Shown: in pieces, positions 6,923 through 31,820 of the stretch
Layout: every line of letters begins with the position of its first letter
Position numbering within the stretch: the first letter of the stretch is position 1
From: Bacteroidota bacterium
GTDB taxonomy: Bacteria > Bacteroidota > Ignavibacteria > Kapaibacteriales > UBA961
DNA: 64,000 nucleotides
Direction of reading: 5' to 3'
NCBI GenBank assembly: GCA_018266765.1
Contig: JAFDZU010000010.1
Span: 4,916-68,915 of the forward strand
Translations under genes and position numbers: made by a program
The notes under the pieces: model-generated
What the model was told of the DNA's origin: nothing
Seen by the model: only the letters and a program-made list of their open reading frames with translations
The model's database searches: none

Positions 6923-6933
6923 AGAAAATTATT

Positions 6934-8916: not shown

Positions 8917-8969
8917 ATTATTAATATTTAAATAACCTTCATTTATTCAGAATAATTATATAATAGCGT

Positions 8970-14880: not shown

Positions 14881-17334
14881 ATGCCTCAAAATCCTATTCC
14901 TAGCAAAGAAATCGAATCCTCAATTCAGAAATTTTGGGATGTAGTAAAATTATCAGGAGAATTGATAATTTCATTGCAAGAAGATAATGCTTCGCTTGCC
15001 CAAAAAGTAGCAGGGATTGAAGACTTGTTTGATGGAAAAAAAGTTGAATATGCTGCTTTAACCAATAGACTATCAGAACTTCAAACTCAGATTGAAGGTT
15101 ATCAAGCTCGTATTCAAAAAGTAAGTATTCAAGAAGCTCAGCAAAAGGATTTATTAGATTCTCTCGAAGAAAAAAACCGTAAAATAAAAGAGATTACAAA
15201 TGAAAAGAATGCTTTAGAAACTGAAAAATTAACATTAGTACAAACTGTAGAATCTTTACAAGAAGCTGTAATTAATCATGAACATTCTCTACGTCGAATT
15301 GAATTATTAGAACAAGAAAAGCAGGAATTGACTGGGCATTTGGATGAGATGAAGGAGTTTGAACAAAATAGGGAAATGATTCAGAAAGAACTTGCAAGAC
15401 GGAACGTAGAAGTAAATACTCGAATAAATGAAGCTCAACAATATAAGAATCAAATTGCTGAAATTGAAGATAAACTTTTTGAAATCCCAAAGTTAAAAGA
15501 GGAAATCGAGAAACTAATTACTTCGCTTTCGACTATCACCGAACAACGCGATAAATTGCTCCAAACTCATGAGCAAGCCGCTGAATTTACTAAAAACTAC
15601 GAAGACTTACAATCCAAATTACAAGAATATTCAAACCAAATTCTCGAATCTCAAAATCAAAAAGAGACAGACGACTCAACTATAGCAGAAGCTTTTGAAC
15701 GAATTACTGACCTTGAAAACAAACTAAATTCCGAACGATCTACTCAAGCTCGCCTCCATGTAGAGTTGCGCTCTGCTCGTGATTATGAAGAGCAAATTGC
15801 CAGACATTTAGGAGCGTTGGATGAATATTCATCCCAAATATTAGAACTAAAGAAGCAGAAATCTCTAACTGAACAATTGTTTGCAGAGGCGCAATCAGCG
15901 ATGCTTGCCGCACAAGCCGCTTTTGAAGTCGAAAAATCAAGTAACTGGGATTTGTCTGAAAAATATCAAATTCTTTCAGGACAATTAGTTACAGCTCAAA
16001 GTGAACTTGAAAAGCAATTAAATAGATTTAATTCTCTCGATGAAATACATAAAACCACAGATAAAAATTATAAAGAATTAAAAGAAGCGACTGAGCTTGC
16101 TCAAATCCAAACAAGTGAATATTTAACTGCTAAAAATGAAGCAGAACATCAATTAGAAAATGAAAAGGAACAAAGAACAGCAATTGAAGCTACAATTGCA
16201 ACTCTTAATTCTGAGTTAAGTCATTCAAAAAAAGAAGTATTGGAATTGCAAGGTGAAATTGAGAAAACTATTCTAACCAAAGCTGAAATAGAAGAAAAAG
16301 TAATTGAAATTCAAGGTAATTACGATTCTCTAAAATCAACCTTTGAATCGTTAAATAAAGAATTAATTGCCACCAAGAAAGAATCTGATAATTTACACAA
16401 TGAACTAGAAAAAATTGCATTAGCCAAGGCAGACGCTGAAGAAAAATTACGTGAAGCAATTGAAAAACAAACAACTTCAGAAATAAGTAATGATTTGTCC
16501 GGAAAAGAGCTAATTGCATATAAAAAGGAAATCACTGAATTACAAAGTGAACTCGAAAAAATTGCTTTGGCAAAAGCAGACACAGAGGAGAAATTACAAG
16601 AAGAGATTGATCTTCATAAGATTTCAGAATCAAAATTTAAAGAAATTAGCAAAGAACTTTTAGAATCGAAAAAAGAAAGTAAACACTTACAAGATGAATT
16701 AGAAAAATTAGCTTTAGCCAAAGTAGGAATTGAGGAAAAAATTCTTGAAGAAACTGAACTTCGTAAAACTCTAACGAAAAAATTAGAACAAGCATTAGAA
16801 GAAAAATCATTGTTGACAAAAGAATTACACGTTAAAGTGGAACAAGAAGAGTTGGGTAGTAACGAACTGTTGGCAGAAATTACTCGAACAAAAGAAGAAG
16901 TTAAATCTTTACGGAAAAAGCTGGCAATAGAAGAAGAAGAGAAAACTCAGCAAGATCTAATAATTCAACAATATAAAGAAGCGTATGATGCAGCAGACCG
17001 GATTCATCAATATAACAAAAGTCTTGAACGAGAACGAGATGAATTAACAATTGAATTAAGTAAAGTGCGACAAGCACTTTATAATTCTAATGAACAGATG
17101 CAAAAAAACGAGAATGAACTATTATCTCGTATCGAAATTTTAAATAAAGAATTAGCTGTCACTCAAACTGAAGATAAAGTACTAAAAACACTTTCTGTAA
17201 AAAAGGGTAAAAACATACCTATAATTGAACCTATTGTAGAAATACCAGCAATAGAAGATAAAAAAGCTGTAGTTGTCAACAAAATAGGGGATATTCTTGC
17301 AAGATTAGAAGAAGCATTACACCAACCAGAATAG
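14881..17334 (+). CDS. Long coiled-coil protein (~818 aa) with internal ~49-aa tandem repeats.
   Basis: The ORF-track start at 14836 is GTG; the first ATG is 14881 (MPQNPIPSK…). The protein is almost entirely E/K/L/Q heptads. It carries three copies of ELEKIALAKADAEEKL-like units. Confidence 0.7.
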   Translation: MPQNPIPSKEIESSIQKFWDVVKLSGELIISLQEDNASLAQKVAGIEDLFDGKKVEYAALTNRLSELQTQIEGYQARIQKVSIQEAQQKDLLDSLEEKNRKIKEITNEKNALETEKLTLVQTVESLQEAVINHEHSLRRIELLEQEKQELTGHLDEMKEFEQNREMIQKELARRNVEVNTRINEAQQYKNQIAEIEDKLFEIPKLKEEIEKLITSLSTITEQRDKLLQTHEQAAEFTKNYEDLQSKLQEYSNQILESQNQKETDDSTIAEAFERITDLENKLNSERSTQARLHVELRSARDYEEQIARHLGALDEYSSQILELKKQKSLTEQLFAEAQSAMLAAQAAFEVEKSSNWDLSEKYQILSGQLVTAQSELEKQLNRFNSLDEIHKTTDKNYKELKEATELAQIQTSEYLTAKNEAEHQLENEKEQRTAIEATIATLNSELSHSKKEVLELQGEIEKTILTKAEIEEKVIEIQGNYDSLKSTFESLNKELIATKKESDNLHNELEKIALAKADAEEKLREAIEKQTTSEISNDLSGKELIAYKKEITELQSELEKIALAKADTEEKLQEEIDLHKISESKFKEISKELLESKKESKHLQDELEKLALAKVGIEEKILEETELRKTLTKKLEQALEEKSLLTKELHVKVEQEELGSNELLAEITRTKEEVKSLRKKLAIEEEEKTQQDLIIQQYKEAYDAADRIHQYNKSLERERDELTIELSKVRQALYNSNEQMQKNENELLSRIEILNKELAVTQTEDKVLKTLSVKKGKNIPIIEPIVEIPAIEDKKAVVVNKIGDILARLEEALHQPE
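16400..16765 (+). repeat. Three imperfect ~147-bp tandem coding repeats inside the coiled-coil gene.
   Basis: gaactagaaaaaattgcattagccaaggcagacgctgaagaaaaatta (16402), gaactcgaaaaaattgctttggcaaaagcagacacagaggagaaatta (16549) and gaattagaaaaattagctttagccaaagtaggaattgaggaaaaaatt (16695). Confidence 0.7.
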
Positions 17335-17470
17335 AAAATTTTGCATCATTTAACTTTGTAAACAAAGCAAATTACTTATACCAAAAAATAATTTGTAACT
17401 TTTTTTTAGGGTACGGTGTCTGTAGATTTGAACGCCGAAACTATAATTAACTGATTTTTGGAGAAATGCC

Positions 17471-18034
17471 ATGTCGCTGTCAGTCCGAAAGCCGAATGAA
17501 GACGATTTGCGAGAAGCTGCCGACGAATTACGTTCGGGAAGCGCGGTGGCATTTCAGTTTCTCTACAAAGAGTATTCTCACAGCGTTTATCGGTTTTGTT
17601 TTAGAATGGTTGGTGATTCGGTAGCAGCACAAGATGCATTTCAAGAGACATTTATGAAGGTGTATGAACACCATCAAGAGTTTAGAGGGGACAATTTTGC
17701 GGCTTGGTTATTTACAATTGCCCGGAGGGTATGTCTTAACCATCTTCGTTCTAAAAAAGACCATGCGATTTTCGATGAAGAAGAGCATGGTTCAAATTCT
17801 CTCTTTCCGGTAAATGATATAGGTATGCAACTTTGCGTTAATAATGCACTTATGCTCCTACCGCTACAGCTTCGAGAAGCTGTAATCCTTCGTGAATACG
17901 AAGGATATTCTTATCAAGAAATAGCATTAATAGTTAGTATTGATATTTCACTTGCAAAAGTTCGGGTACATCGAGCCAGATTACTTCTTCGTAAATTATT
18001 AGCACCTGTTATGCAGGAATGGTATGAATCTTAA
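17471..18034 (+). CDS. ECF-type RNA polymerase sigma-70 family factor.
   Basis: Region 2 FQFLYKEYSHSVYRFCFRMVGDSVAAQDAFQETFMKVY. Region 4 HTH YSYQEIALIVSIDISLAKVRVHRARLLLRK. 187 aa. Confidence 0.8.
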   Translation: MSLSVRKPNEDDLREAADELRSGSAVAFQFLYKEYSHSVYRFCFRMVGDSVAAQDAFQETFMKVYEHHQEFRGDNFAAWLFTIARRVCLNHLRSKKDHAIFDEEEHGSNSLFPVNDIGMQLCVNNALMLLPLQLREAVILREYEGYSYQEIALIVSIDISLAKVRVHRARLLLRKLLAPVMQEWYES

Positions 18035-19427
18035 TCTTCTTATATCGAAATATGTAGATGGTGACCTCACAATAGAGGAAGACCAGCTATTGCGTTGCCT
18101 GCTGAGCGAAGATTCAGCAGCGAAAGAAGCATTTGATGCCGCTACAGCGTTACACCTAACTATGCTCGAAGACGAAGATAGTATTAGTATTCCTAATGAT
18201 TTTCTTTTGGAAACAGAAGCATTTATCACAATGAAATTTGCTACTGATGAAGCAATTGCAAAAGCTCTTCTACGAGAAAATAACATAAAAAACTTCAAAA
18301 ATAATTTAAGAAAATTAAGTTCAGTTGTTGTTGCTTTACTCTTTATATTTACTGTACCTTTTAGTGATTTGTTTTTACAAAGAAAATCTAATTTTGCAGA
18401 GAATACACAACAAATAGTTGATTCACAAAATGAAGCTTCTTTACAATCCTTTCATTTCTCAAATAGTAAAAGTAACAGAAATGGACAGATAACTCGTTTC
18501 TCATTAAGAAAACAAGATGTTTCAGCTTCGATGAATAACAGGTTATTGGCAGATAAAAACGTAAATATTGAATCGAATGCAGTTGAAACAATCAGCATTG
18601 AAACTCCATTTCTTACAAAAGATGCACCGAAGCCATTACCATCGGTTGTGTTGGCTTCGAGGAATGCACAATATTCTACTCTAGATTATAATAGTGGTAC
18701 TTTTGCTCAACAGTTCAATAGTAGTGGTATCTCACAGTCTAATTCCACTATTTATCAAACAAGTACTCATGCGGACCAACCGTTAAATAGTGAACAAACA
18801 GAAATTCAAGCTAAAAATACAGAGATTCAAGTAAATACTTTTTTATCAAATAAAGTTGCTAATAATCGAGATAATGCTATTTCAACGACAGCAATTTCTC
18901 AAAGTATTTCCTATTCACTCAATGAAAAAAGTAAAGTAGGTGTTGAAATCGGTTATAATGGATATTCTTACCGAGGTGGTGGAATAGTTCTTGTCCCTCG
19001 TGGAACAAGTTCTGTACTTTCCAAATCTACCATTCTAAGTATGGATGGGCCTGAAAGTGGAATTCCCGGAAAAGATTTAAATCCGATTGCCGAGAAAGCT
19101 TCTCAGAGCAAAGCCGAAGGATTTGAAGAAAAAAATGTTGAATACTCGATTGATAAAACTATGTATTGGGGAGCGGCTTTCTATGAATATATGATTTTTA
19201 ACAAAGGAAATATTTCTGTGAATGGTCGTATTGGTGCCGGTGGTTCAAATGATGGTGCGATGGCATTTACTCGCGCATTTGCTCGGTATGATGTTGTGAA
19301 AGGTGTTTCCTTAACTGTCGGTGCTGAGGCAAATGCTTTTATGGTAAATATGCAGACTCTTCCCAATGATAAAGAATCGATAAATTCAGGAATATCATTG
19401 GTCTACGGTATGCAAATAAAATTCTGA
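18024..19427 (+). CDS. Putative anti-sigma factor, translationally coupled to the sigma gene. It has a single TM and a large periplasmic region whose C-terminus looks like an OMP beta-barrel.
   Basis: Its start overlaps the sigma stop by 11 nt. N-terminal anti-sigma-like helix YVDGDLTIEEDQLLRCLLSEDSAAKEAF. TM LSSVVVALLFIFTVPF. C-terminal alternating hydrophobic pattern ending …GISLVYGMQIKF (terminal Phe). Confidence 0.5.
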   Translation: MNLNLLISKYVDGDLTIEEDQLLRCLLSEDSAAKEAFDAATALHLTMLEDEDSISIPNDFLLETEAFITMKFATDEAIAKALLRENNIKNFKNNLRKLSSVVVALLFIFTVPFSDLFLQRKSNFAENTQQIVDSQNEASLQSFHFSNSKSNRNGQITRFSLRKQDVSASMNNRLLADKNVNIESNAVETISIETPFLTKDAPKPLPSVVLASRNAQYSTLDYNSGTFAQQFNSSGISQSNSTIYQTSTHADQPLNSEQTEIQAKNTEIQVNTFLSNKVANNRDNAISTTAISQSISYSLNEKSKVGVEIGYNGYSYRGGGIVLVPRGTSSVLSKSTILSMDGPESGIPGKDLNPIAEKASQSKAEGFEEKNVEYSIDKTMYWGAAFYEYMIFNKGNISVNGRIGAGGSNDGAMAFTRAFARYDVVKGVSLTVGAEANAFMVNMQTLPNDKESINSGISLVYGMQIKF

Positions 19428-19560
19428 ACCTAAAGTAAAAGTGTTAAAAATCTGTAAAGTTTTTGTGTCTTTAAAAAATTAAAGTTTGGCAACATACAGT
19501 AAATCTTCTTATTTTCGGATAATGTTAAATAATGTATTATATGTTTTATTGGAGTTATAT

Positions 19561-21654
19561 ATGAAAAATTCGTTTCTTGTTCCTATTTTATCCGTTGGAT
19601 TACTGCTTGGCTCAGTTTCTTCCAGTATCGCCCAACGAACAGATAAAATTCCTGCTACAAATCTAAATACTCAAGTATTAGTTCGAGATGTGCACACACC
19701 AACACATAAATATGTTCCAAATTCTCCCGACGAAAGCACTCCTATTGCACCTTTTTCCCAAAAAGAAATTAAAAAAATCACTAAAAACACTGGTAACTCT
19801 GTTTTAGGTGGTGATAAAAAAATCAATGTAAACCTGCCGGGAGTTAAAGTTGGCTATACTTATTATGATTTCCAAACCAATAATTCAATGCCCGAACGCC
19901 TTGCATTATTCTCTGATGGAAATGATAAATATATTCAAATGTTTTGGATGGCTTCATTAGATAGCTCTAAAGAAGGAGCAACTGGTCAGTTACCAATTGT
20001 TGGATTTAATAATCAACGTGGCGCACACTATGCTTTTGTAGATGTATCAAAACCAGATGCACCTGCAAGTCAATATGAATGGAAAAAAATGGCTGCTGAA
20101 AAAAATGGTGGTACTGCAGAACGTCGTGGGTGGCCTTCAATTGTTCAATTTAAAAATGGAAGTGTCGGAACTCCTTCACACACACCTGTTGATTTCTTTA
20201 AAAGCCCTGATGTAGGTGATGAAAACTTTACAAGAACAACGGTTGACCAAACTACTTCTACTTGGCCAAGAGCTGCAATAGACGGTCAAGATATTGTTCA
20301 TGTTATTTATAATACTAATGCTTCGACTAATTCAGATGCCACACAAAACTTTACATGCTACCGTCGCTCGACTGATAAAGGAAAAACATGGGAAGCTGAA
20401 AAGATACTTACAAATGCTGCTTTTGACGGTAATTTTCCGCGTGGTGGTGGTGGTGATTCCTATGCAATTGCCGCACGAGACAATAATGTAGTAATATTGT
20501 ATGGTGAATATCCTTCTGAAAGAGCACTATATCGCAAATCTACTGATAATGGAGTAACTTGGAGTGCACCTCTCTTGGTATTAAATCGTTCCTTCCCTGG
20601 AAAAGATACAACAGTTGTTAGTGGAAATACTGTGCATTTAACATCAGAAGTTAGTATAGTAAGTGGTGAACAATTTGATGTAATTATTGATTCGGAAGGT
20701 AAAGCTCATTTTGCATTTAATTTAACACAGGCATATTTAACAAGTTCCGGAACAAAAAGTGTAATAAACGGTAAAGATAGTATAACTAATAGAAGTGATA
20801 CAATCAATTATTTAGATCAGCTATCTGACTATAAAGATGCAAATTTAGGAATCCTTTATTATAAAGAAGGCGATCAATTCCTTTATTATATTGCTCGCCC
20901 GGCATCCATTAATTGGGATGGAGCAGGAACTGTGGTAAGTCGTAGAGCAAGTTCTGGTATTAGCCGTTATCCTCAATTAGGCATAGATGACAAAGATAAT
21001 ATATATATGACCTTTACCTCAGTTAAAAGTGGCGATACGAAGCCAGTTATGGTAGATAATTCTTCTCCTCGTGATGGAGTGCCTGATATTCAGGTTGATG
21101 GTTTAATGGGGCATATTTATGTTACCCATCGTCTAAAAGGTGATAATCCTAATTGGTCATTACCGAAAGATATAACACCTGCCGGAGTAGATTGTCTTTT
21201 TGGAACATTATGTAATACAGTAGCTGATGGTAGAATGTATATCGGTTATTCGGCAGATAATACTCCTGGCGATCGTGTTACCAATACGGAGCTTCCAACA
21301 GAACAAACTGAGATTTATGTATATCCATTTCCAACAACTGAATTAAACCCTATTCCACCGGTTGGAGTACAAGAAGAAGCCGAGGCAAATGACGGGCTTG
21401 CACTTACAGCACAACCAAATCCAACGAATGGCTTAACGGTATTTGCTTTTACAGCACCTCAAAACGGCAATGCTAAAGTAACTCTTACAAATGGTCTTGG
21501 AATGAATGTAGCAATTCTTTATAATGGAATGCTAACAGCCGGAACAACACAAAGTGTTAATTTTAACGCTCAAAATCTTTCTTCAGGTGCATACTATGCA
21601 ACTTTTGAAATCAATGGACGGAAAATTACAAAGATGGTATCAATCATAAAATAA
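19561..21654 (+). CDS. Secreted BNR/Asp-box repeat protein (sialidase-like beta-propeller) with a T9SS C-terminal sorting domain.
   Basis: The ORF track begins at 19486; ATG 19561 gives the signal peptide MKNSFLVPILSVGLLLGSVSSSIAQ with GGAG upstream. Asp-boxes STDKGKTWE and STDNGVTWS. CTD …TAQPNPTNGLTVFAFTAP…VTLTNGLGMNVAILYNG…SSGAYYATFEINGRKITKMVSIIK. Confidence 0.7.
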   Translation: MKNSFLVPILSVGLLLGSVSSSIAQRTDKIPATNLNTQVLVRDVHTPTHKYVPNSPDESTPIAPFSQKEIKKITKNTGNSVLGGDKKINVNLPGVKVGYTYYDFQTNNSMPERLALFSDGNDKYIQMFWMASLDSSKEGATGQLPIVGFNNQRGAHYAFVDVSKPDAPASQYEWKKMAAEKNGGTAERRGWPSIVQFKNGSVGTPSHTPVDFFKSPDVGDENFTRTTVDQTTSTWPRAAIDGQDIVHVIYNTNASTNSDATQNFTCYRRSTDKGKTWEAEKILTNAAFDGNFPRGGGGDSYAIAARDNNVVILYGEYPSERALYRKSTDNGVTWSAPLLVLNRSFPGKDTTVVSGNTVHLTSEVSIVSGEQFDVIIDSEGKAHFAFNLTQAYLTSSGTKSVINGKDSITNRSDTINYLDQLSDYKDANLGILYYKEGDQFLYYIARPASINWDGAGTVVSRRASSGISRYPQLGIDDKDNIYMTFTSVKSGDTKPVMVDNSSPRDGVPDIQVDGLMGHIYVTHRLKGDNPNWSLPKDITPAGVDCLFGTLCNTVADGRMYIGYSADNTPGDRVTNTELPTEQTEIYVYPFPTTELNPIPPVGVQEEAEANDGLALTAQPNPTNGLTVFAFTAPQNGNAKVTLTNGLGMNVAILYNGMLTAGTTQSVNFNAQNLSSGAYYATFEINGRKITKMVSIIK

Positions 21655-21889
21655 ACAAATCTATTACGCATAGGGCAGACACAAGCCGAAACAAGTGGCT
21701 GCCCCAAGCGCACAAACTTTGATTCCAACATCGAATTTGTACACCCCTCATAAATGCATTTTTATCTGAAATAATTGATTGGTATTCAGTAAAGAATAAT
21801 TTTTCTGAATTTGTGCTATAGATGTGTGGAATTATCAATAATACAATACAGTTATAATATTTATTTATACAGTTTTTAGGGAGAATGAT

Positions 21890-24800
21890 ATGAAACGTAA
21901 TCTACTTCTTATGATTATGATTATGATGACTATTCCAATAGTCGCTTCTGCGGGTATAACAGGAGTTTTATCGGGTAAGGTCGTAGATGAAAAAGGAAAA
22001 GCTATCGGCGGGGCATCTATCCGTATAGTCGGAACAAACCGTGGAGGTAATTCTAAACTCAATGGTTCTTTTATTATTTCTAACATAAATGCAGGAAGTT
22101 ATGATGTCTTAGTAAAATTTGTTAACTATAAGGATTATACAACTTCTGTAAGAATCTCTGCTGACCAAACAACTGAAATTACTGTTAAAATGGTGGAATC
22201 AGTCATACAAACTAAAGAGGTTGTTGTAATAGATCATTTATATGAAAAATTAGTTGATAAAGGTAAAGTTGGTTCAATCAGAAGTAGTACCGGAGAAGAA
22301 AATACAAAAATTGCTCGTGAAACAGTTCAACAAGCTGTTGCCCTCAAAGCAGGTGTTCAAGCAACCGGAGGGGGATTTGAAATTCGTGGTAGCCGTTCCA
22401 ATGAAACTCAAATTAGAGTAGATGGACTTGATATGGGTGATCAATTTACCGGAGGATTCGGTAACGCTGGATTCAATCTAACTCCAACTGTAAGTAGTTT
22501 TGCTGTTGAAGAGGTACAAGTATTAACCGGTGGATTCTCTGCCGAATATGGAAATGCATTAGGTGGCGTTGTGAATACTGTGGTTAAAACCGGAAGTACT
22601 GATAGATACGAAGGATTTGCCAGATGGAGAACAGATGCACCTACATTATTTGGAAAAGCAGGAAACGGAATTCAGTTAATGGGTAAGAATGAAAATACCT
22701 ATGAACTTGGAGTTGGCGGACCTATCCCAGCTTTAACAGGTTCAAGCTTTTATTTAACGGGAAAATATGCGTATCAAAAATATGGTGGAAATGGATTAGG
22801 GGTTTTTGACCCATGGGGAAATAATTTAGGACAGATTGGAAATACTCAGACTTGGGTGAAAAATATAACCGGACGATTAAAATTTTATTTTGACAACATA
22901 TCTTTAAATATAGGTGGTCAGTTAGGACTATCCCAACGCGAAAGAGGTTCGTGGGGGTGGCTTTATGCGAATGACTATGGAGTAACGAATCTTCGAAATG
23001 AAGGCGGACGCATAGTTGGTGATACTAATTATGTTCGTGAAGGAATAGCAAAACCGGCAGTTGTTAACGCTAATGTTAGTAACTTATTTGTATCAATAAA
23101 TCATGTGTTAAGTAATGAAACTTTTTATGAATTTAAAGTTTCGACAAATATTAATACAAGTGACGTTTCTAAACGCAGTAACTTTAATGATCCTTCACTC
23201 TTGGGTGGGTTTGAAGTTTATACTCCTGCTGATAATTATGCTTCAGAATTTGACCCAAATAATCCTTTCCAAATGATAGCAGGTCATGATAGAGCTATAG
23301 ATATATTTCAATCTTTACCAAAAACTGTACCGACTGTAGATGGATATGCAAGTAATGACTATTTACAAAGAAATCATATTACCGGGTATATTGAAGGACC
23401 TGCAGATGCGACCGGAACTCAAAACCCCTATGGACTTGCGGGCTACTTTAATCAGCATGGTAACGATAGGAATTTTGATTTCCGCCGTTCTACTTTCCTT
23501 CAATTCGATGGTAATTTTAATACAATTATCAATGCTGGTGATACGAGTGCTGTAAAACATTTTATTAAAGCAGGTTTTGAATTGAGGACATTTACATTGA
23601 AACGTCATCAAAATAGTTTACCTTGGGATGGCAATGCATTTTACGATGTTTATACTGATGAATTTGGTGGAAATCCCTATGCAGATAATGCAATAGCCAA
23701 AAGCATTACAGAACAACCTAAAAAACCACTTTCAGGTGCAATTTATGTACAAGACCAAATGAGTTACAAAGGAATCATTATTAATCCTGGTTTGAGATTT
23801 GACTTTACAGACCCTAATTCTACATATCGTTTGCCAAGTACATACTTTACACCTATTACTTCAGATAGCGGATTTGCAAAAACTACGTTAAAATATCAAG
23901 TAAGTCCCCGTATTACAGTAGCTTATCCGGTTACAGATCGTTCGATACTTAATATTAGTTATGGTATTTATTTCCAGATGCCGGTTTTGAGTCAATTGTA
24001 TGATGCTTTTAACACAGACAGATTACGTGCCGGTTCGATTCTTGGTAATCCACAATTACCAGCACAACGTACAAATCAATATCAAGTAGCTTATAATCTT
24101 CAACTCACCGATGATTTTGCTTTTGATGTTACTGCTTACTACAAAGATAACTACAATCAAACAGGTTTAGTCCATGTGTATGCTATTCCAGATTCTTATG
24201 ATGAATATAGTGTATCTGAATATGGAAATAGTAGAGGTATAGAAATTACATTTAAAAAACGCCCTACGAATAATATTGGACTAAATTTAAATTATACACT
24301 TTCTTCAACTACTGCAACTTCTTCAGCAACTGAAGATAACTATAATCGCCCAGTAGACCCTTATACAAATAAAACGGCATTTCCGCTTTCAGAATTCCCT
24401 TATTCTAATGACCGTCGTCATCAACTGACCGGAATAGTCGATTTTGTTTGGGCCAGAGAAGAAGGACCGGGAATTGGTGGAATCAAACCTTTGGAAAATG
24501 TTAATTTAAACTTTACAACACGTTTTCAAACTGGAACTCCCTATACACGATATAGTCCAAAAGGTGTAGCAATTAGTGATTTTAATTCTGAACGTCAGCC
24601 ATCTTCATGGCAAACTGATATGCGTTTTACAAAGGCATTTCCTCTAAAAGATTGGTTTGGAGAAGGTTTCAGCAAAACAACCCTTGAATTTTTTGTGGAT
24701 GTATTAAATCTCTTTAATAGAACAGACTTTACAAGTGTGTATGCAAGAAGTGGTGATCCCGACCAAGATAATAGCTCCTATAACCGTGCACTTGGTGACT

Positions 24801-25045
24801 TTAGTGCAACTGTATATTATAAAACCGCTTCTCTGATCAATGCAACTACTTATCGATCTGACCAATATGATCGTTTCGGAAATCGACTGTACACTCCTCA
24901 AGCTGACTTTAATAATGATGGACAAGTGACTCAACTTGAGAAGTATCAATCCTATTTGAGTTTTGTAAATACTGCTCAAGCTCGAAGAGCTGCGAATTAT
25001 CAAGCTCCAAGACAAGTGTTTTTTGGCTTTATGATTCGCTTCTAA
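21890..25045 (+). CDS. TonB-dependent outer-membrane receptor with an N-terminal carboxypeptidase-regulatory-like domain.
   Basis: Signal peptide. CarbopepD_reg-like GVLSGKVVDEKGKAIGGASIRIVG…GSYDVLVKFVNYKDY. Plug-like EIRGSRSNETQIRVDGLDMGD. 1051 aa, ending in the beta-barrel terminal …FGFMIRF. Confidence 0.8.
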   Translation: MKRNLLLMIMIMMTIPIVASAGITGVLSGKVVDEKGKAIGGASIRIVGTNRGGNSKLNGSFIISNINAGSYDVLVKFVNYKDYTTSVRISADQTTEITVKMVESVIQTKEVVVIDHLYEKLVDKGKVGSIRSSTGEENTKIARETVQQAVALKAGVQATGGGFEIRGSRSNETQIRVDGLDMGDQFTGGFGNAGFNLTPTVSSFAVEEVQVLTGGFSAEYGNALGGVVNTVVKTGSTDRYEGFARWRTDAPTLFGKAGNGIQLMGKNENTYELGVGGPIPALTGSSFYLTGKYAYQKYGGNGLGVFDPWGNNLGQIGNTQTWVKNITGRLKFYFDNISLNIGGQLGLSQRERGSWGWLYANDYGVTNLRNEGGRIVGDTNYVREGIAKPAVVNANVSNLFVSINHVLSNETFYEFKVSTNINTSDVSKRSNFNDPSLLGGFEVYTPADNYASEFDPNNPFQMIAGHDRAIDIFQSLPKTVPTVDGYASNDYLQRNHITGYIEGPADATGTQNPYGLAGYFNQHGNDRNFDFRRSTFLQFDGNFNTIINAGDTSAVKHFIKAGFELRTFTLKRHQNSLPWDGNAFYDVYTDEFGGNPYADNAIAKSITEQPKKPLSGAIYVQDQMSYKGIIINPGLRFDFTDPNSTYRLPSTYFTPITSDSGFAKTTLKYQVSPRITVAYPVTDRSILNISYGIYFQMPVLSQLYDAFNTDRLRAGSILGNPQLPAQRTNQYQVAYNLQLTDDFAFDVTAYYKDNYNQTGLVHVYAIPDSYDEYSVSEYGNSRGIEITFKKRPTNNIGLNLNYTLSSTTATSSATEDNYNRPVDPYTNKTAFPLSEFPYSNDRRHQLTGIVDFVWAREEGPGIGGIKPLENVNLNFTTRFQTGTPYTRYSPKGVAISDFNSERQPSSWQTDMRFTKAFPLKDWFGEGFSKTTLEFFVDVLNLFNRTDFTSVYARSGDPDQDNSSYNRALGDFSATVYYKTASLINATTYRSDQYDRFGNRLYTPQADFNNDGQVTQLEKYQSYLSFVNTAQARRAANYQAPRQVFFGFMIRF

Positions 25046-25094
25046 TCCACTTTCATTTGAAAATAATATTTTTTTTACAGAGAGGAACATCTCA

Positions 25095-28000
25095 ATGAAA
25101 TTACAAATCAAAATTATGGTATTCGTGCTAATGCTCCTAAGTATTACTACTTATATGCAAGCTCGAACCAAAGATCAGGTTAAAGGTAAGAAACAGGAAG
25201 GTGCTGAAATTTTACGCGCTGCAACTGGTACGTATGACCTTCAAAAAAATAAAGTTAGTAGGATAGAATTATTTAATACTAATTATGGAATGATTGGTCA
25301 TGATGTCCAAAAAAGTTTAGGAGGCGGAATTTGGCCTAGAGGTTCACAAAATCAATACATTTATGGTGGTGGTATCTGGTTTGCCGCTAAGAAGCTTACA
25401 ACTAAAGGAGATACCACGAGACTAGTAGAAATCGGATATAATCCAAATTCAGGAGCTTCATGGTTTGCACCCGGTATGATAGAAGATGGAGACGAAGCAC
25501 AGGATGCATTTCGAAATAAATATCGAATTTATTTTTCTACCGATTTCCGCCCAGATGGTGTTCCGTTTAATCCTGCAGATGGTCCTAATTGGCCAATTTG
25601 GGACAGTAGCCCTGATAAATTAGATACTCTTAAAAAAGACAGATATTTAGGATATTATGTTGACGATATTGATTCAAGAAATAAACGTATAAATCCTAAA
25701 GGTCCTGCATTTATTTCCGGTGAAGACATATTTACAGTTTTTAAAGATACTGATTTAAATAGATTCGAAGGTGGAGTTGGAACACGACGTAGCCAAGGAT
25801 TTCCTTTAAGACTTCAATATGAACAAATAATATATTCTTGGGGTTTTGGTGATTATCGTGATTTTATGTTTATCAAATACTATATAATTAATAAATCTAA
25901 AGATACACTTTTAGATTGTTGGGCGGCGTCTGCATTTGATATGGATATTGCACCTACTACAAACACTCAAAATGGAGCCGGAAATGATCATACTCGTTTC
26001 TACGATGAAGACGATACTTTGAATTTAGCTGTTCAGTGGTCAGACGGTAATCAAGGAGAAAGTAGGAAGGGGTTTGGATATATTGGATTTGATTTTTTAG
26101 AGAGTCCGGCTTTAAGTACTAATAATTATATAAGACATGACAAAAAATACTATAGTGGTAAAGAACAATTAGGATTAGTTTCATTTCGAAATTGGACTAT
26201 AGACAATGATCCGAAAGACAACGGAGATAGATATGATTTTATGTCTCAAAAGAATCAAAAAGATGGAGATAATGGAGCCGGAGACAAGAGATTCCTTATG
26301 TCTACCGGCCCCTTTAATTTACGACCTAATGATACAGCACGCGTTGTTGTAGGATTAATAATGGCTAATACAGTAAAAGGTGGAGATGCTAATGGTACTA
26401 CAGCAGATTTAGAGGAACTTATTCGTAAAGACAAATTTGCGCAAAAAGTGTATGATGATAATTTCCGTGCTCCGATTCCTCCGGATGCAGGACCAGTTAC
26501 TTGGAAACCACTCAATAATGCTATGAGTATTTCTTGGGACAGTACTTCAGAAATGTCATATGATGCATTAGAAGAAGGGCTGGATTTCTTGGGATACCGT
26601 TTATATAGAGCAAGAAGAGAAGATTTAGATTCATTTGATGTTGACCAAAGAGGCGCACCTATCAATCGTGGTCCTCTCGGTTGGAAACAAATTGGTCAGT
26701 GGCAAATGCTGCTACCTTTTTTCAAATCTTTGGTTCAGGCAGGGGATGAAAGAGATTCTCCTTATTTTGATTCTCTAGTTTCAATAACGAAAATTGATTC
26801 GTTTACTTTTACAGTCCGTAGATCTCCAAACAATGTAACTGTTAATAACCCTTATGGTGTAGGTGTGTGGGGAAATTATTTCAGATCATTACCTCCGGCA
26901 CAATTACAAAATATTTTAACAGGACGTATTGATGTTTCAAGAGCTTTGGTTACATCGCCTCCAACTACAATACAAGGGCTAATGGGATTATTAAAAGATG
27001 GTACTGCAACCATAACATTCCCAGATATAGAACCAGATACTAATGTACGTAAAAGAATTAGAAAAGAAGTGATAGCTCCATATATGGATAGTATAACAAA
27101 TCATAGAACTTTTATTGACCTAGGTGATGATGATAAAGATGGAGTGATAAATGAAGATCCTAATCCTGTCAAAACTGAAAAATTACTCAATAATGTGGAT
27201 TATTATTATCGTTTATTAGCGTACGATGAAGGTGATTTCAAACAATTCAGTCCTAAGAAAGTGAATGTAGGAATTTCTGAACTTAATCAACAGAAAGTGT
27301 ATCCTTATGCCGCTCCAGCTGGTGCAAATAATTCAGAAGTTCAGGTTATTTCAGTAGATAGTGGAGCAATGGGCGGATTATATAATTTTAAATTTAAAGT
27401 ACTTGACCAAGACAGATTTAATCAACTATTTACAAATAGTGATAATGAAGGGCATGAGCTTGAGTTGGAATTCCAACCGTCTTGGGGAGTTATAGCTTAT
27501 CCGGCAGCAACTGTAGCCGCCCCAAATCCTCCAAGATATGGTCTCTATCAAAGAACTATTACATTAAAAGATAAAACAAATGGTCAGTTACTATTTACTG
27601 GCTCAACTTTTCTTGAACCGGTTCTTTGCAGTACACCAATATTAAAGCTTTTTACAGAAAATGCGGCTACTTATGTACAAGCTGATACTGCTCAAAAAGA
27701 TTCAATTAGTGGTCAAGTAAGTACCTTTGGAGTTCCAACTGATAAAGGTAAGCTTTTGCGTGTAGGATCCTTTACTACAGATAAAACAAGTAGTGGTTCT
27801 ACTTGCTATAGCAGTCTTTTAGATAATAACGCAAAGCAAACACTTGGTTTCTCATTTGATTACGGCATTCAGCAGCAGGGAGGTTTGTTTCGTTTAGATA
27901 CTTTATATATTTCAAATAACACTTCTGGTACTAAAACACCTATCAGTATAACCGAAGGTGGATTTAGAACTGTAGCTCAAATTGATACAATATTTACTGC

Positions 28001-29066
28001 GGCAGGTGGATTATTAGTTTATAGAGGGTTCAATAATGGTGCCGCACAATATGAGCTTGAATTCCTTGAAGGCGGAGATACAACTTTGACAGTAGCAACA
28101 GATGAAGCCGGTACGACTACAAAGCAATTTCCTGTTAAATATTTGAATGTTCGAGTCCATAATAAAATTACTTATAAGAGATTAAATGAAAATGGGGATT
28201 CGGTTAATGTAACGTATCCTAAAGAAGTTGCTTTTGCTCAACAAGATCCTGCTTCATTTAATGTTGACCTACCTCTGACACCAGCTATGTATGTTCCGAT
28301 AGGTTCTTATAATTTAGCTGCTTTTGGATGGATGAATGGACGAGTGTATGAAGTAAATGGAAGTACAACAGCAACTAATGGAGGATTAGCCCGAAAGAAA
28401 CAAACACGTGGCTTGTTAGGTCAACAAAATCGTTATTATCTAAGTTCGATAGTAGGAAGCGATACCCTAGATTTTACACATACATTTGAAGTATCAGGTG
28501 GAGAGATTGTTTTAGATTATGTCAACAAAGGGTATCGTAATAGACTTAATCAAATAGGTGTTAGAAATGAAGATCCTGCATTCAGTTATGGAAATGATTT
28601 TAAATCGGGTGATAAAATCGAAGTAGATATAACCGGTGGTGCTGTAGGATTTCCTTTACCCGGTGCTAAAGTAACTGCAAAAGTAGTTACCAGTATTCCA
28701 AAACTTGATCAATATACAGATAATTTACTTGATCAAGTAAAAGTAGTACCTAATCCATATTACATAACAAATCAAGCTCAAAGATCTCCTTATGATGCAA
28801 AAATATATTTTACAAAATTGCCCAGACAGTGTACAATTTCAATTTATACTGTAACCGGTGAACTTGTAAAAAAACTAGAGCATAATGAATTTACTTCTCC
28901 AGCTCCCGATAAATATGCAGTAGAAATATGGGACTTGTTAAGTACCAATCGTCAGCGTGTTGCGAGTCAAACGTTAATTGCTAAAATTGAGACTCCGAAT
29001 GGTGCAAGTACTATTCAAAAATTCTCTTTAGTTGTTGGTAGTTTCCGATTAATACCAACAGACTAA
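25095..29066 (+). CDS. Very large (1323 aa) secreted protein with a T9SS C-terminal sorting domain; function unknown.
   Basis: Signal peptide MKLQIKIMVFVLMLLSITTYMQA. C-terminus VVPNPYYIT…KIYFTKLPRQCTISIYTVTGELVKKLEH…VEIWDLLSTNRQRVASQTLIAKIETPNGASTIQKFSLVV fits the CTD pattern. It lies directly downstream of the TonB-dependent receptor. Confidence 0.6.
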   Translation: MKLQIKIMVFVLMLLSITTYMQARTKDQVKGKKQEGAEILRAATGTYDLQKNKVSRIELFNTNYGMIGHDVQKSLGGGIWPRGSQNQYIYGGGIWFAAKKLTTKGDTTRLVEIGYNPNSGASWFAPGMIEDGDEAQDAFRNKYRIYFSTDFRPDGVPFNPADGPNWPIWDSSPDKLDTLKKDRYLGYYVDDIDSRNKRINPKGPAFISGEDIFTVFKDTDLNRFEGGVGTRRSQGFPLRLQYEQIIYSWGFGDYRDFMFIKYYIINKSKDTLLDCWAASAFDMDIAPTTNTQNGAGNDHTRFYDEDDTLNLAVQWSDGNQGESRKGFGYIGFDFLESPALSTNNYIRHDKKYYSGKEQLGLVSFRNWTIDNDPKDNGDRYDFMSQKNQKDGDNGAGDKRFLMSTGPFNLRPNDTARVVVGLIMANTVKGGDANGTTADLEELIRKDKFAQKVYDDNFRAPIPPDAGPVTWKPLNNAMSISWDSTSEMSYDALEEGLDFLGYRLYRARREDLDSFDVDQRGAPINRGPLGWKQIGQWQMLLPFFKSLVQAGDERDSPYFDSLVSITKIDSFTFTVRRSPNNVTVNNPYGVGVWGNYFRSLPPAQLQNILTGRIDVSRALVTSPPTTIQGLMGLLKDGTATITFPDIEPDTNVRKRIRKEVIAPYMDSITNHRTFIDLGDDDKDGVINEDPNPVKTEKLLNNVDYYYRLLAYDEGDFKQFSPKKVNVGISELNQQKVYPYAAPAGANNSEVQVISVDSGAMGGLYNFKFKVLDQDRFNQLFTNSDNEGHELELEFQPSWGVIAYPAATVAAPNPPRYGLYQRTITLKDKTNGQLLFTGSTFLEPVLCSTPILKLFTENAATYVQADTAQKDSISGQVSTFGVPTDKGKLLRVGSFTTDKTSSGSTCYSSLLDNNAKQTLGFSFDYGIQQQGGLFRLDTLYISNNTSGTKTPISITEGGFRTVAQIDTIFTAAGGLLVYRGFNNGAAQYELEFLEGGDTTLTVATDEAGTTTKQFPVKYLNVRVHNKITYKRLNENGDSVNVTYPKEVAFAQQDPASFNVDLPLTPAMYVPIGSYNLAAFGWMNGRVYEVNGSTTATNGGLARKKQTRGLLGQQNRYYLSSIVGSDTLDFTHTFEVSGGEIVLDYVNKGYRNRLNQIGVRNEDPAFSYGNDFKSGDKIEVDITGGAVGFPLPGAKVTAKVVTSIPKLDQYTDNLLDQVKVVPNPYYITNQAQRSPYDAKIYFTKLPRQCTISIYTVTGELVKKLEHNEFTSPAPDKYAVEIWDLLSTNRQRVASQTLIAKIETPNGASTIQKFSLVVGSFRLIPTD

Positions 29067-29080
29067 ATTATTTAACCTCA

Positions 29081-29120
29081 GAAAGAGACCTTTTAGCATA
29101 CAAAAAAGGTCTCTTCTCGA
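29081..29120 (+). terminator. Hairpin terminator after the 1323-aa gene.
   Basis: AAAGAGACCTTTT agcatac AAAAAGGTCTCTT, a ~13-bp stem. Confidence 0.6.
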
Positions 29121-29177
29121 AGAAAATTTAAAATAACAACTTAATCTTCAATAAAAGAAAAACTTAGGAGATATATA

Positions 29178-30251
29178 ATGAAAAGAATAATACGGAGTTT
29201 ATTGACTGTTTCTATTGGAATCTTGTTGACGACAACTGTGCTTTTTGCAGTAGATACACAGTCCGAGGGGTCTTCAGCAGGAGATTTCCGAAAAGTTGGT
29301 GCTGCAGGGTCTCAATTTCTTAAAATAGGGGTAGGAGCAAGAGCATCCGGAATGGCTGGTGCTTATGGAAGTGTTGGAAATGATATTTCGTCACTATATT
29401 GGAATGCTGCAGGAATAGCAGATATAAAAGATATTGCAGGTAGTTTTTCTTACACTTCATGGTTTGCAGGTTTTTCTCATAATTTTGTTGGAGGTTGCAT
29501 ACCTTTAAGTGATAAATACAGAGCCGCATTTAGTATTACTTCATTTACCAGTGATCAAATTCCGATCACAACTATAGAAAAAGATCAGGGAACCGGAGCA
29601 AAATATAGTGTATCAGATTTTGCTATTGGTTTATCATTCGGAGGATATATTACAGACCAATTCTCATTTGGAACAACATTGAAATATATCCAAAATGCTT
29701 TCTCAACAGTATCAGCAAGTGGTATTGCTTTTGATGTGGGTACTATTTATAAAACCGGATTTCAAGGTACGAAAATTGGATTTTCTATTCATAATCTTGG
29801 CGGACAACAAAATTATACGGGACAAGACCTTAATCGTACAGGTAAATTAGTACCTGAACAATATGCAAGTCCATCAGACCTACAATTATTAAGTAGTCCT
29901 TATAATTTACCTCTAACTTTCCGTGCAAGTATATCTACAGATGTAATGAGTTTTATTAATGGTGAATCTATTACTCCTTCTGACGCAGACCATAAATGGA
30001 TTGCCTGTGTTGATTTTGAAACACTTTCAGATACTCCAGAACAATTTTCAATTGGTACTGAATATGTGTGGAAAAATTTTATAGCAATTCGTGGAGGGTA
30101 TCGTTTTGGACATGATACTTTTAATGTAGCTGGTGGTGTTGGACTTAAATATATAAGTGGTGGTTTTGACGGTCAAATTGATTATTCAATAAGCCCTGCT
30201 CAGAATCTTGGGTTAGTGAATCGCTTTACACTTTCAGTCAGAGTTCCATAA
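29178..30251 (+). CDS. Outer-membrane beta-barrel protein, PorV/LptO-like (FadL-fold T9SS shuttle family).
   Basis: Signal peptide. N-terminal FRKVGAAGSQFLKIGVGARASGMAGAYGSVGNDISSLYWNAAGIA resembles the PorV hallmark (PFL.I..DARA.GMG..G.A…D.S….WNPA). G/Y/F-rich alternating strands. C-terminal …RFTLSVRVP. The call is from memory of the family. Confidence 0.5.
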   Translation: MKRIIRSLLTVSIGILLTTTVLFAVDTQSEGSSAGDFRKVGAAGSQFLKIGVGARASGMAGAYGSVGNDISSLYWNAAGIADIKDIAGSFSYTSWFAGFSHNFVGGCIPLSDKYRAAFSITSFTSDQIPITTIEKDQGTGAKYSVSDFAIGLSFGGYITDQFSFGTTLKYIQNAFSTVSASGIAFDVGTIYKTGFQGTKIGFSIHNLGGQQNYTGQDLNRTGKLVPEQYASPSDLQLLSSPYNLPLTFRASISTDVMSFINGESITPSDADHKWIACVDFETLSDTPEQFSIGTEYVWKNFIAIRGGYRFGHDTFNVAGGVGLKYISGGFDGQIDYSISPAQNLGLVNRFTLSVRVP

Positions 30252-30300
30252 GTAATTTGATGTTAGTATCGTATTGCATCTAAGAATGCAAATATCTTAT

Positions 30301-30335
30301 AAATTGCCGTTGGATATTTCATTCAACGGCAATTT
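30301..30335 (+). terminator. Rho-independent terminator after the PorV-like gene.
   Basis: Perfect 12-bp inverted repeat AAATTGCCGTTG…CAACGGCAATTT, followed by GTATTTTAAT. Confidence 0.7.
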
Positions 30336-30377
30336 GTATTTTAATCAGTAATTTTTTGAATTATCTAAATATGATTT

Positions 30378-31820
30378 ATGAAACTTCAATTATCGCTTAT
30401 GACTGGGTTGATAGTGTTGTTTACAAACTTATCAACGGAAGCAAAGAACATCCCTTTCACAATTGATGGAGCTCAATTCCAATACGATAATACTCATGAT
30501 TTATGGGAATTTTATTATTCATTTCCAGATACCGCTCTTCGATATATACAAATAACAGATAGCAAAAAATATATTGGTTCATTACATATTACTGTTCAAA
30601 TTAATTCAATATCCTCTGGAATTGTTGAAAAAAAAGAATGGATAGTTGATAATTATTCCGATACAATTATTCGTTCACATAATCGAAATTTAATTGGACA
30701 AAAATCATTTATTCTCTTACCCGGACAATATAGTGTCGACGTTGAAATTAATGATATGAATGATACAGCTTCTCGTGCTAAAACTTCACTGCAGTTGCTT
30801 ATTAAGTCCTTTGTAAAAAATTCAATCGCAATCAGTGATATAGAACTTGCAACACAAATATTATCACAACAATCAAATAACCTTGTAAATTTAAATCCTT
30901 CATTTTTAAAAAATACTTTATTTGTCGTTCCGAATCCTAATCATGAGTTTATTGGTACAGCGCCAGTTCTTTCGGTTTACTCTGAAATTTATAATGCCAA
31001 AATATACGCCAGAGATAGTATTCGTATCGAATATAAAATTATCGATGGCGCAAAACGAGAACAGTTTATTGCGCAATTTTATCGTGTTGTTATTTCTGAT
31101 GGTCAAGTAGAAACAACATCCTTACCATTAGACGGCTTGGCAAGTGGTGTCTATTACCTACAACTTAGTGTACAATCTATCCACAATTCAGTAGATAAAG
31201 CTACAGCATTAAAGAAATTTTATGTCCTTAATCCAGAAATGCCGGTAGAACTTGCCCCGACATTGAGCGAAGATGAATTGTTTCATATCAGTGAGTTTGC
31301 AACACTTTCAGAAGAACGAGTTGAAGAAGAATTTACAAAAGCAAAAGTATTAGCTTCTCAAGCTGAAGTACAATTGTATGAATCTTTATCAGAGAATGTA
31401 GCCAAGCAAAAATTTTTGTATCGTTTTTGGAAAGAACGTGACCCAAAACCAGAAACTCCTGAAAATGAAAAATTGGATGATTTTCGTAAAGCAATCAAAC
31501 ATGCAAATACTTATTATTCAAACATTTTAATTAAAGAAGGTTGGAAAAGCGATCCTGGAAGAGTTCTACTCAAATATGGATTTCCATCACAAATAGACCG
31601 TCATTCTCAGAATAGTGAAACCAAACCATATGAAGAATGGTTTTATAATAATATACAGGGTGGAATATCCTTCCAATTCGTTGATTTAAAAGGATATGGG
31701 AATTATATTCAAGTGAATTCTAATGCAATCGGTGAATCACGAAATGAAAAATGGTTTGAACAATATGTAAAAATGTTTGAATCTAAAACTGATGAAGAAA
31801 TGATATCAACTCCACGGTAA
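30378..31820 (+). CDS. Secreted GWxTD-domain protein.
   Basis: Signal peptide. The C-terminal region IKEGWKSDPGRVLLKYGFPSQIDRH…YEEWFY matches the GWxTD-domain signature seen in Bacteroidota-type genomes. Confidence 0.55.
   Translation: MKLQLSLMTGLIVLFTNLSTEAKNIPFTIDGAQFQYDNTHDLWEFYYSFPDTALRYIQITDSKKYIGSLHITVQINSISSGIVEKKEWIVDNYSDTIIRSHNRNLIGQKSFILLPGQYSVDVEINDMNDTASRAKTSLQLLIKSFVKNSIAISDIELATQILSQQSNNLVNLNPSFLKNTLFVVPNPNHEFIGTAPVLSVYSEIYNAKIYARDSIRIEYKIIDGAKREQFIAQFYRVVISDGQVETTSLPLDGLASGVYYLQLSVQSIHNSVDKATALKKFYVLNPEMPVELAPTLSEDELFHISEFATLSEERVEEEFTKAKVLASQAEVQLYESLSENVAKQKFLYRFWKERDPKPETPENEKLDDFRKAIKHANTYYSNILIKEGWKSDPGRVLLKYGFPSQIDRHSQNSETKPYEEWFYNNIQGGISFQFVDLKGYGNYIQVNSNAIGESRNEKWFEQYVKMFESKTDEEMISTPR

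Follow-up and report, generated by a model that had tools for sequence, protein, structure and literature searches.

The 64,000-nucleotide stretch analysed here (the window) is part of contig JAFDZU010000010.1 of the Bacteroidota bacterium assembly GCA_018266765.1, and the locus under study lies at its positions 17471-30335. Six open reading frames (ORFs) are located on the + strand within these limits. They encode, in order, an extracytoplasmic function (ECF) sigma factor, a membrane anti-sigma factor, a BNR/Asp-box protein with a type IX secretion system (T9SS) C-terminal domain (CTD), a TonB-dependent transporter, a giant secreted protein of an unannotated family, and an outer-membrane barrel of the PorV/PorQ family (Table 1). 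An initial annotation made from the DNA letters had placed six genes and a terminator here, and both the ORFs and a terminator-like hairpin (30298-30338) were recovered at those coordinates. The genes fall into two modules. Module A (17395-21654) consists of a promoter, the sigma gene, the translationally coupled anti-sigma gene and the gene for the T9SS-sorted BNR protein, and module B (21890-30251) is an invariant trio of transporter, giant all-beta CTD-bearing protein and dedicated PorV/PorQ-family barrel.

Table 1. Features of the locus and its downstream flank, with the number of surveyed loci in which a gene is a syntenic neighbour of the trio
Feature	Position in window	Strand	Properties	Syntenic in loci
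ECF-type promoter candidate	17395-17420	+	GTAAC-N18-GTC (TGTAAC ... GTGTCT), 76 nt before the sigma start codon	
ECF sigma factor	17471-18034	+	187 aa; Sigma70_r2 1.8e-19, Sigma70_r4_2 3.5e-12, TIGR02937 82.9 vs cut-off 42.9	38/61
Dma-like dual-membrane anti-sigma factor	18024-19427	+	467 aa; overlaps the sigma gene by 11 nt	37/61
Anti-sigma domain (predicted)	aa 1-~55 of the 467-aa protein	+	helices at residues 3-53, pLDDT ~90 (AlphaFold2)	
Inner-membrane helix (predicted)	18315-18377 (aa ~98-118)	+	mean Kyte-Doolittle 2.2 for aa 100-118	
Disordered S/N/Q-rich linker (predicted)	aa ~111-263	+	pLDDT <50 (AlphaFold2); variable in alignment	
8-strand beta-barrel (predicted)	18825-19421 (aa 268-466)	+	pLDDT mostly >90 (AlphaFold2); ends YGMQIKF	
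BNR/Asp-box protein with T9SS type-A CTD	19561-21654	+	697 aa from ATG; two S-x-D-x-G-x-T-W boxes	43/63 (CTD protein at this position; tblastn, some being CTD-only matches of 46-65 bits)
Stem-loop 3' of the BNR gene	21667-21710	+	no T tract; RNA fold -17.7 kcal/mol, z-score -3.3	
TonB-dependent transporter	21890-25045	+	1051 aa; CarboxypepD_reg extension, Plug, barrel ending ...GFMIRF	
Giant secreted protein, unannotated family	25095-29066	+	1323 aa; signal peptide without lipobox	
Divergent T9SS-type CTD-like beta-sandwich (putative)	28737-29033 (aa ~1215-1313)	+	found by hhalign; followed by the conserved tail VVG-x-FR	
Stem-loop between giant and PorV-like genes	29077-29122	+	no T tract; RNA fold -16.8 kcal/mol, z-score -4.5	
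PorV/PorQ-family outer-membrane barrel	29178-30251	+	357 aa; NF033709 166.1 bits vs cut-off 90	
Intrinsic terminator-like hairpin	30298-30338	+	18-bp stem, then TTTTAAT; -22.7 kcal/mol, z-score -7.9	
GWxTD-domain protein	30378-31820	+	480 aa; TIGR04514 82 bits vs cut-off 28	47/63
LpxL-like lipid A late acyltransferase	31831-32709	+	PF03279 at 2.7e-43	43/59
Family-9 glycosyltransferase (GT9; heptosyltransferase-like)	32697-33746	+	PF01075 at 2e-33	29/58

Gene order was surveyed by scanning one genome per species, and 80 loci were retrieved; all counts given here refer to loci with enough flanking sequence. Relatives of the giant protein were present in 209 species genomes, where the gene is essentially single-copy. 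The transporter gene precedes the giant gene in 72/72 loci and the PorV-like gene directly follows it in 70/70, while the flanking genes are less constant. The same order is found in dozens of genomes, which puts the arrangement far beyond chance. The trio is found without the sigma pair in 23 of the 61 loci (38%). One locus (L088:6836-15074) is a bare trio between unrelated, divergently oriented housekeeping genes, and a second (L087:4708-18754) retains the whole block minus sigma and anti-sigma; based upon these two loci, the trio was considered an autonomous unit. Three genes thus form a core that does not vary, often preceded by the regulatory module and often followed by envelope genes. 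With regard to its end, the initial annotation had closed the locus at the PorV-like gene and the terminator. The terminator is present, and it is the strongest terminator-like site of the region, but synteny runs on into the genes for the GWxTD protein, the LpxL-like acyltransferase and GT9, and the end coordinate marks a transcription boundary and not the end of synteny. A literature search on the GWxTD domain found no paper. Two further stem-loops inside the locus (Table 1) could be partial terminators or mRNA-processing/stability elements that tune expression levels.

A "hypothetical protein" from a metagenome-assembled genome (MAG) labelled Bacteroidetes is 100% identical to the 1323-aa protein, and the MAGs that carry relatives have the labels Kapabacteria/Kapaibacterium, Ignavibacteria, Chlorobiota and FCB group. 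In the NCBI taxonomy, Kapaibacterium is placed within Bacteroidota and Ignavibacteria within the sister phylum Ignavibacteriota. The trio is about as conserved as the adjoining lipopolysaccharide (LPS) enzymes; in the locus L052, for example, identities are 41% for the transporter, 40% for the giant protein and 51% for the PorV-like barrel vs 42% for LpxL and 36% for GT9.

The first member of the trio had been called a TonB-dependent receptor, and this call was supported by a CarboxypepD_reg extension and a Plug domain (PF07715, 40.4 bits vs 23.9), the latter matched by 30/30 relatives. The barrel model PF00593 gave no match in the window transporter and matched 7/30 relatives (best 8e-23), and the predicted 22-strand TonB_dep_Rec barrel is confirmed at the level of the family only. 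When compared by family profile, the transporter matched PhuR (E 1.2e-18), 9gbc (4e-16) and the SusC N-terminal extension 9hfj (1e-6). The stretch TKEVVVID (aa ~108-115), located before the plug, is TonB-box-like by appearance, with V-x-V-x-A as the family consensus.

The giant protein belongs to a family of 1300-1600-aa proteins that is unannotated yet conserved in >200 species. It can be divided into a highly conserved N-terminal half (aa 50-530), a variable middle and the CTD-like domain, with mean identities to the window protein of 64%, 39% and 61%, respectively. No sequence match in Pfam, NCBIfam or the PDB was obtained, including searches with family profiles and Pfam searches of 31 family members. 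Its putative T9SS signal emerged from profile alignment: aligned by hhalign to a profile of 84 type-A CTDs from the same loci, the last ~100 aa gave a probability of 90.3% (E 1.5e-6) over 80/84 columns, and in the reverse direction a hidden Markov model (HMM) of the CTD-like domain matched a Por_Secre_tail protein at 2.4e-4. Of the initial designation as T9SS cargo, what stands is this alignment to type-A CTDs; the standard HMMs made no such call. The remainder (aa 36-1210) was modelled using AlphaFold2 as almost all beta (predicted local distance difference test (pLDDT) 85, predicted template modelling score (pTM) 0.67). A Foldseek search of this model returned weak matches to GH116 and GH94-like glycoside hydrolases/phosphorylases (E ~1e-6, query-normalised TM-score (TMq) 0.17, root-mean-square deviation ~10), a likeness that is presumably restricted to the beta-sandwich part of those enzymes. 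Identification as a glycoside hydrolase (GH116, GH94 or GH15-type) was rejected based upon the weakness of these matches and a model without (alpha/alpha)6 helices; the matches do not speak for catalysis. PorU was also considered, prompted by the porU-porV adjacency in Bacteroidota, and was rejected given that there was no C25 or NF033707 match and the fold matches were to unrelated proteins, none of them a C25 peptidase; the PorZ comparison (NF052228) gave no match in the giant protein.

The last gene of the trio had been described as PorV-like. It does encode a PorV-like protein and not a generic FadL transporter, as judged by its NF033709 score and by a search of the family profile against the PDB, in which Flavobacterium johnsoniae PorV (6h3i_F, E 8.5e-14) was the only significant match and no FadL chain was returned. 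An identical protein is named "PorV/PorQ family protein" at NCBI. Neither the PorV equivalog model (NF033710, 68.0 vs 250) nor the PorQ equivalog model (NF033711, 67.8 vs 220) reached its cut-off, and by these sequence profiles the barrel is assigned to a third, dedicated PorV/PorQ subfamily. The homologue search for this protein returned orthologues only (>=49% identity) and so gives no view of distant paralogous modules.

Such barrels are known to anchor surface proteins. Published work reports that PorU is anchored by PorV and PorZ by PorQ, with the CTD retained in both PorU and PorZ, and that genes for T9SS cargo cluster with those for cognate PorV-like barrels (PMC12365241, PMC10202324). 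The present locus resembles PorU-PorV and PorZ-PorQ in that a large CTD-bearing surface protein is encoded beside a FadL-fold barrel of the PorV/PorQ family. In those systems the retained CTD docks on the barrel; here the conservation of the CTD-like domain is similar to that of the core of the giant protein. The differences are that the giant protein is neither PorU nor PorZ, that the barrel falls short of both the PorV and the PorQ equivalog models, and that a TonB-dependent transporter is an obligate third partner. A second parallel is SprB-SprF (type-B CTD, PorP/SprF), in which the cargo is likewise encoded beside its own anchoring barrel and the CTD is probably uncleaved (PMC10202324), although here the barrel belongs to the PorV/PorQ family and the CTD aligns to type A and not to type B.

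T9SS cargo of the ordinary kind is also encoded in the window. The BNR protein, which had been annotated as T9SS cargo, has two Asp-boxes (STDKGKTW and STDNGVTW) and a CTD at the threshold of detection (TIGR04183 23.5 vs 23, just above the cut-off; Pfam Por_Secre_tail 25.4 vs 27), and all Pfam BNR models were below their cut-offs. The CTD of the BNR family is only 32% identical, compared with 61% for the CTD-like domain of the giant protein. Mechanical ORF calling starts the gene at TTG 19486 (722 aa). Because ATG 19561 is preceded by a GGAG ribosome-binding site and is followed by a normal signal peptide, MKNSFLVPILSVGLLLGSVSSSIAQ, it is probably the start codon, giving 697 aa rather than 722. 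Three window proteins, the giant protein not among them, scored above the TIGR04183 cut-off, and since several window proteins carry a type-A CTD, T9SS-type sorting is taken to be common in this genome. Further along the window, a 716-aa protein (37600-39750, + strand) gave a weak Peptidase_C25 (gingipain/PorU-type) match together with TIGR04183 (32 bits) and FlgD_ig (31 bits), and may be a further T9SS cargo, possibly a protease. A 524-aa protein (40820-42394, - strand) scored 35.7 bits for a T9SS type-A CTD, a clear match, and matched an SBBP beta-propeller weakly.

Outward transport by a TonB-dependent barrel has been reported for Myxococcus Oar. Dedicated export of the giant protein was considered as an alternative, in which the transporter would release the giant protein outward and the PorV-like barrel would capture its CTD independently of the T9SS translocon. 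This model would account for the invariable linkage of three genes with the cargo encoded between two barrels, for a transporter of the non-SusC type (CarboxypepD_reg, Plug and barrel in ~1050 aa), and for a CTD-like domain divergent enough to escape the T9SS HMMs. However, a folded, beta-rich protein of 1300 aa fits a plugged 22-strand barrel poorly, and the ordinary type-A CTD proteins of the window imply the normal T9SS route; we regard dedicated export as improbable.

Turning to module A, the call of an ECF sigma factor held, with Sigma70_r2, Sigma70_r4_2 and TIGR02937 all above cut-off; the closest specific model, sigma_PG0214, reached 87 bits vs a cut-off of 130. In the search for promoters, two-block motifs were enumerated over the 160 nt that precede each of 37 sigma genes and were compared with shuffles. 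TGTAAC-N16/17-GTGTC was present before 22 of these genes, vs <=5 loci for any such motif in the shuffles, and anchoring of the 37 loci gave the consensus T-GTAAC-(T-rich)-GT-GTC-T with almost always constant spacing. The relaxed pattern GTAAC-N16-18-GTC had 131 matches in 3.29 Mb (both strands), 31 of which were within 250 nt 5' of a sigma gene (37 loci screened). In a gene-by-gene count with a relaxed pattern, the motif was found before 28/37 sigma genes and was rare before the other genes of the locus (BNR 2/44, transporter 6/71, giant 7/73, PorV-like 3/71, GWxTD 1/48). In the window alone the pattern was unenriched (2 matches vs 2.7 expected); given that window-only counts are not significant, the evidence for the promoter is its conserved position across genomes. 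Owing to this conservation, the sigma factor is very likely autoregulated.

The initial annotation had proposed a search for an ECF motif upstream of both 17471 and 21890. A conserved motif precedes the sigma gene (17395-17420), but none was found before 21890 in the window. ECF promoters before the transporter, BNR, PorV-like or GWxTD genes were tried as candidates across the loci and rejected, as no conserved two-block motif was present; the "motifs" enriched 5' of the PorV-like gene and of the GWxTD gene belong to the last coding stretch of the gene before each. Directly upstream of the sigma promoter lies a gene for an 832-aa coiled-coil protein (14836-17334, + strand) with weak SMC/Rad50-type matches, and it is kept at this position only in L007, L018, L026 and L063.

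The anti-sigma factor had been called odd because of a C-terminus like that of an outer-membrane protein. Neither Pfam nor NCBIfam gave a match above threshold for the 467-aa protein of the window, but among 32 homologues zf-HC2 was detected in 21 and RseA_N in 4. AlphaFold2 predicted helices at residues 3-110, then disorder, then eight long strands. The top PDB matches of this barrel in Foldseek were all outer-membrane beta-barrels (E down to 1e-6) and included the 8-strand OmpA transmembrane (TM) domain, NspA, OmpX, Ail and OmpW, as well as a de novo TM barrel (target-normalised TM-score (TMt) 0.81). In the alignment, the conserved regions are the N-terminus and the C-terminal ~200 aa, and the terminal YG-x-Q-x-x-[FLI] is kept in 32/32 aligned homologues. 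The proposed barrel was thus upheld by the eight modelled strands, the structural matches and the conserved end. A full-library profile search with a limit of E<=1e-30 gave 236 clusters, and among the 150 listed nearly every one matched the whole profile. On this basis the architecture is considered a stable family.

While the barrel architecture is real, it is not unprecedented, and it matches the Dma (dual membrane-spanning anti-sigma) family, which Pardue et al. 2024 described from Bacteroides (PMC10927553). In Dma proteins, a sigma-binding domain at the N-terminus is followed by a helix in the inner membrane, a long disordered stretch and, at the C-terminus, an 8-strand outer-membrane barrel (PMC10927553). 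For B. thetaiotaomicron Dma1, Western blots of the tagged protein in membrane and vesicle fractions support dual-membrane placement, and Western blots also support growth-phase-dependent cleavage (PMC10927553). Dma1 orthologues include Reo/EcfO of B. fragilis and M0N98_03760/61 of Phocaeicola vulgatus, and in the study of Evans et al. 2022 envelope stress induced the Phocaeicola orthologue, which also altered O-antigen length (PMC9308784). By predicted architecture, the window protein has every feature of a Dma protein and is a new, divergent member of this recently described kind. As with Dma1/Das1, an ECF sigma gene is followed by that of an anti-sigma factor with a predicted sigma-binding domain, one helix, a disordered tether and an 8-strand barrel, in an envelope-related context and in a lineage inside or beside Bacteroidota. 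In contrast to Dma1/Das1, the barrel here goes undetected by PF13568, and the pair immediately precedes an outer-membrane protein module and LPS genes.

These results bear on the proposal, made initially and weighed here as an alternative, that the locus is a PUL-like unit (PUL, polysaccharide utilisation locus) of cell-surface signalling, in which the transporter senses a substrate and signals via the anti-sigma factor so that the ECF sigma factor induces the locus. The genes are co-directional and adjacent in 38/61 loci and the sigma factor has an autoregulatory promoter, both of which would be expected under such signalling. As in FecA/FecR/FecI, an ECF sigma factor, a membrane anti-sigma factor and a TonB-dependent barrel share one neighbourhood. 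The FecA/FecR/FecI system differs, however, in having the STN and FecR domains that are absent here, and the anti-sigma factor of the window has an outer-membrane domain of its own, by which it would reach the outer membrane by itself. No STN domain was found in the window transporter or its 30 relatives, no FecR domain in the window anti-sigma factor or its 32 relatives, no SusC/RagA signature (TIGR04056) in the transporter at E<=0.01, and no SusD match for the giant protein. Furthermore, the relaxed ECF motif is seen before 6/71 transporter genes vs 28/37 sigma genes, no promoter was found before 21890, and the sigma pair is absent from 23/61 loci. Classical cell-surface signalling is disfavoured since its defining domains are absent, and control of the transporter by the sigma/anti-sigma pair as a PUL-like unit was dropped as quite unlikely.

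Instead, we tentatively favour, at somewhat less than even confidence, a reading in which two modules stand in series and do not form one signalling unit: a Dma-like sensor module (A), followed by a module (B) in which the giant protein is displayed on the PorV-like barrel as the partner of the transporter. By analogy to Bacteroides Dma1/Das1, the barrel of module A would report on the condition of the outer membrane or on barrel assembly. In the event of damage, the anti-sigma tether would be proteolysed, and the sigma factor thus released would transcribe at least its own operon. In module B, the giant protein would cross the outer membrane via T9SS, keep its CTD and be held at the surface by the cognate PorV-like barrel, as PorU is on PorV and PorZ on PorQ. 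There it would act as the exposed partner of the transporter, the role that SusD and surface lipoproteins have for SusC-type transporters. Judged by these analogies, display of the giant protein on the dedicated barrel is the most likely arrangement. The constant position of its gene, between those of the transporter and the PorV-like barrel, makes it probable that the giant protein cooperates with the transporter at the surface. We infer that the trio would serve TonB-powered uptake of a substrate and, in this sense, may have a role in "nutrient capture" as initially proposed. Its substrate or role is probably a core one and not an accessory glycan, given that the trio occurs in single copy and that its conservation is similar to that of the neighbouring LPS enzymes.

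The likeness to SusC/SusD is one of layout. In both, a transporter has a CarboxypepD_reg extension and the next gene encodes a presumably surface-exposed partner. Here, by contrast, the SusC/RagA signature and SusD are lacking, and the presumed partner, a protein ~3 times larger, has no lipobox cysteine and hence is no lipoprotein. SusC/SusD PULs are multi-copy, whereas the trio is single-copy and slowly evolving. No description of a module of transporter, PorV-like barrel and giant protein was found in the literature searched, and the trio is best seen as a new variant that combines cognate PorV-like anchoring with a transporter having a surface partner.

Several observations weigh against the reading of a Dma-like sensor in series with a surface-displayed transporter partner. 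TIGR04183 and PF18962 gave no match on the giant protein, even when its last 120 aa alone were searched at E<=10, and its modelled fold gives no substrate clue. PF13568 (OMP_b-brl_2), the Pfam family of Dma1, had no match in the window anti-sigma factor (E<=10) or in its 32 homologues (E<=1). Control of module B by module A is unproven, given that no ECF promoter precedes the trio and that stem-loops follow the BNR and giant genes. Lastly, single-copy conservation at housekeeping level and synteny with LpxL and GT9 fit a role in envelope biogenesis equally well.

Under this last alternative, the trio would work with the GWxTD, LpxL-like and GT9 proteins in outer-membrane or LPS assembly or in surface attachment, and not in import; one example would be LPS-linked surface proteins handled in the manner of the PorU/V/Q/Z attachment complex. 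Beyond the occurrence of the giant protein as an essentially single-copy gene in 209 species genomes and the LpxL- and GT9-like degree of conservation (e.g. L052), such a role would suit the GWxTD gene downstream in 47/63 loci and the LpxL gene in 43/59, the envelope-stress-type Dma-like regulator upstream, and the use of FadL-fold barrels as platforms, both for BamG-BamH in the beta-barrel assembly machinery (BAM) of Bacteroidota (PMC12578637) and in the T9SS attachment complex (PMC12365241). The LPS genes are, however, absent from a quarter to half of the loci, and the bare trio exists. In the window a terminator separates the PorV-like gene from the GWxTD gene, the Plug-bearing transporter with its TonB-box-like stretch bears a hallmark of import, and the giant protein has no PorU similarity (no C25, no NF033707). 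An envelope-biogenesis machine is considered a rather unlikely alternative.

More speculatively, the trio could be a three-component outer-membrane machine of Kapabacteria/Ignavibacteria-type bacteria, in which a TonB-energised barrel and a PorV-like barrel jointly operate the giant protein, often under a Dma-type sensor of outer-membrane integrity. Two versions of such a machine would fit, one a T9SS-anchored alternative to the SusCD "utilisome" and the other a TonB-powered secretion or anchoring device that bypasses the T9SS translocon; we consider a machine of this kind unlikely.

With regard to the initial annotation as a whole, its observation is confirmed and its interpretation is partly supported: the last gene belongs to the PorV/PorQ family and the gene order is conserved, and consequently neither of the findings named in advance as contradicting it (a generic FadL/OmpP1 barrel, an unconserved order) was made. 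In terms of the reading of two modules in series, the trio extends the principle of cognate barrels (PorU-PorV, PorZ-PorQ, SprB-SprF) to a new cargo family, which in this case comes in fixed linkage with a TonB-dependent transporter. Should the giant protein indeed be the surface partner of the transporter, SusCD-like capture devices may use T9SS anchoring and not exported lipoproteins. Dma-like factors have so far been described only in classical Bacteroidota, and the present family adds a large, sequence-divergent branch from deep-branching relatives, comprising >230 clusters that the Pfam barrel model misses. Linked as it is to a defined group of envelope genes, this branch provides a simpler setting in which to study the signal that the barrel detects.

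Two other gene groups of the window, both on the + strand, were noted upstream of the locus. Five co-directional ORFs are located at 107-8415, of which four (659, 226, 916 and 426 aa) had no Pfam/NCBIfam match and the fifth (493 aa) has a C-terminal OmpA peptidoglycan-binding domain, and this cluster may be envelope-related. At 8530-11147, a stand-alone response regulator is followed by a CHASE-PAS-HisKA sensor kinase.

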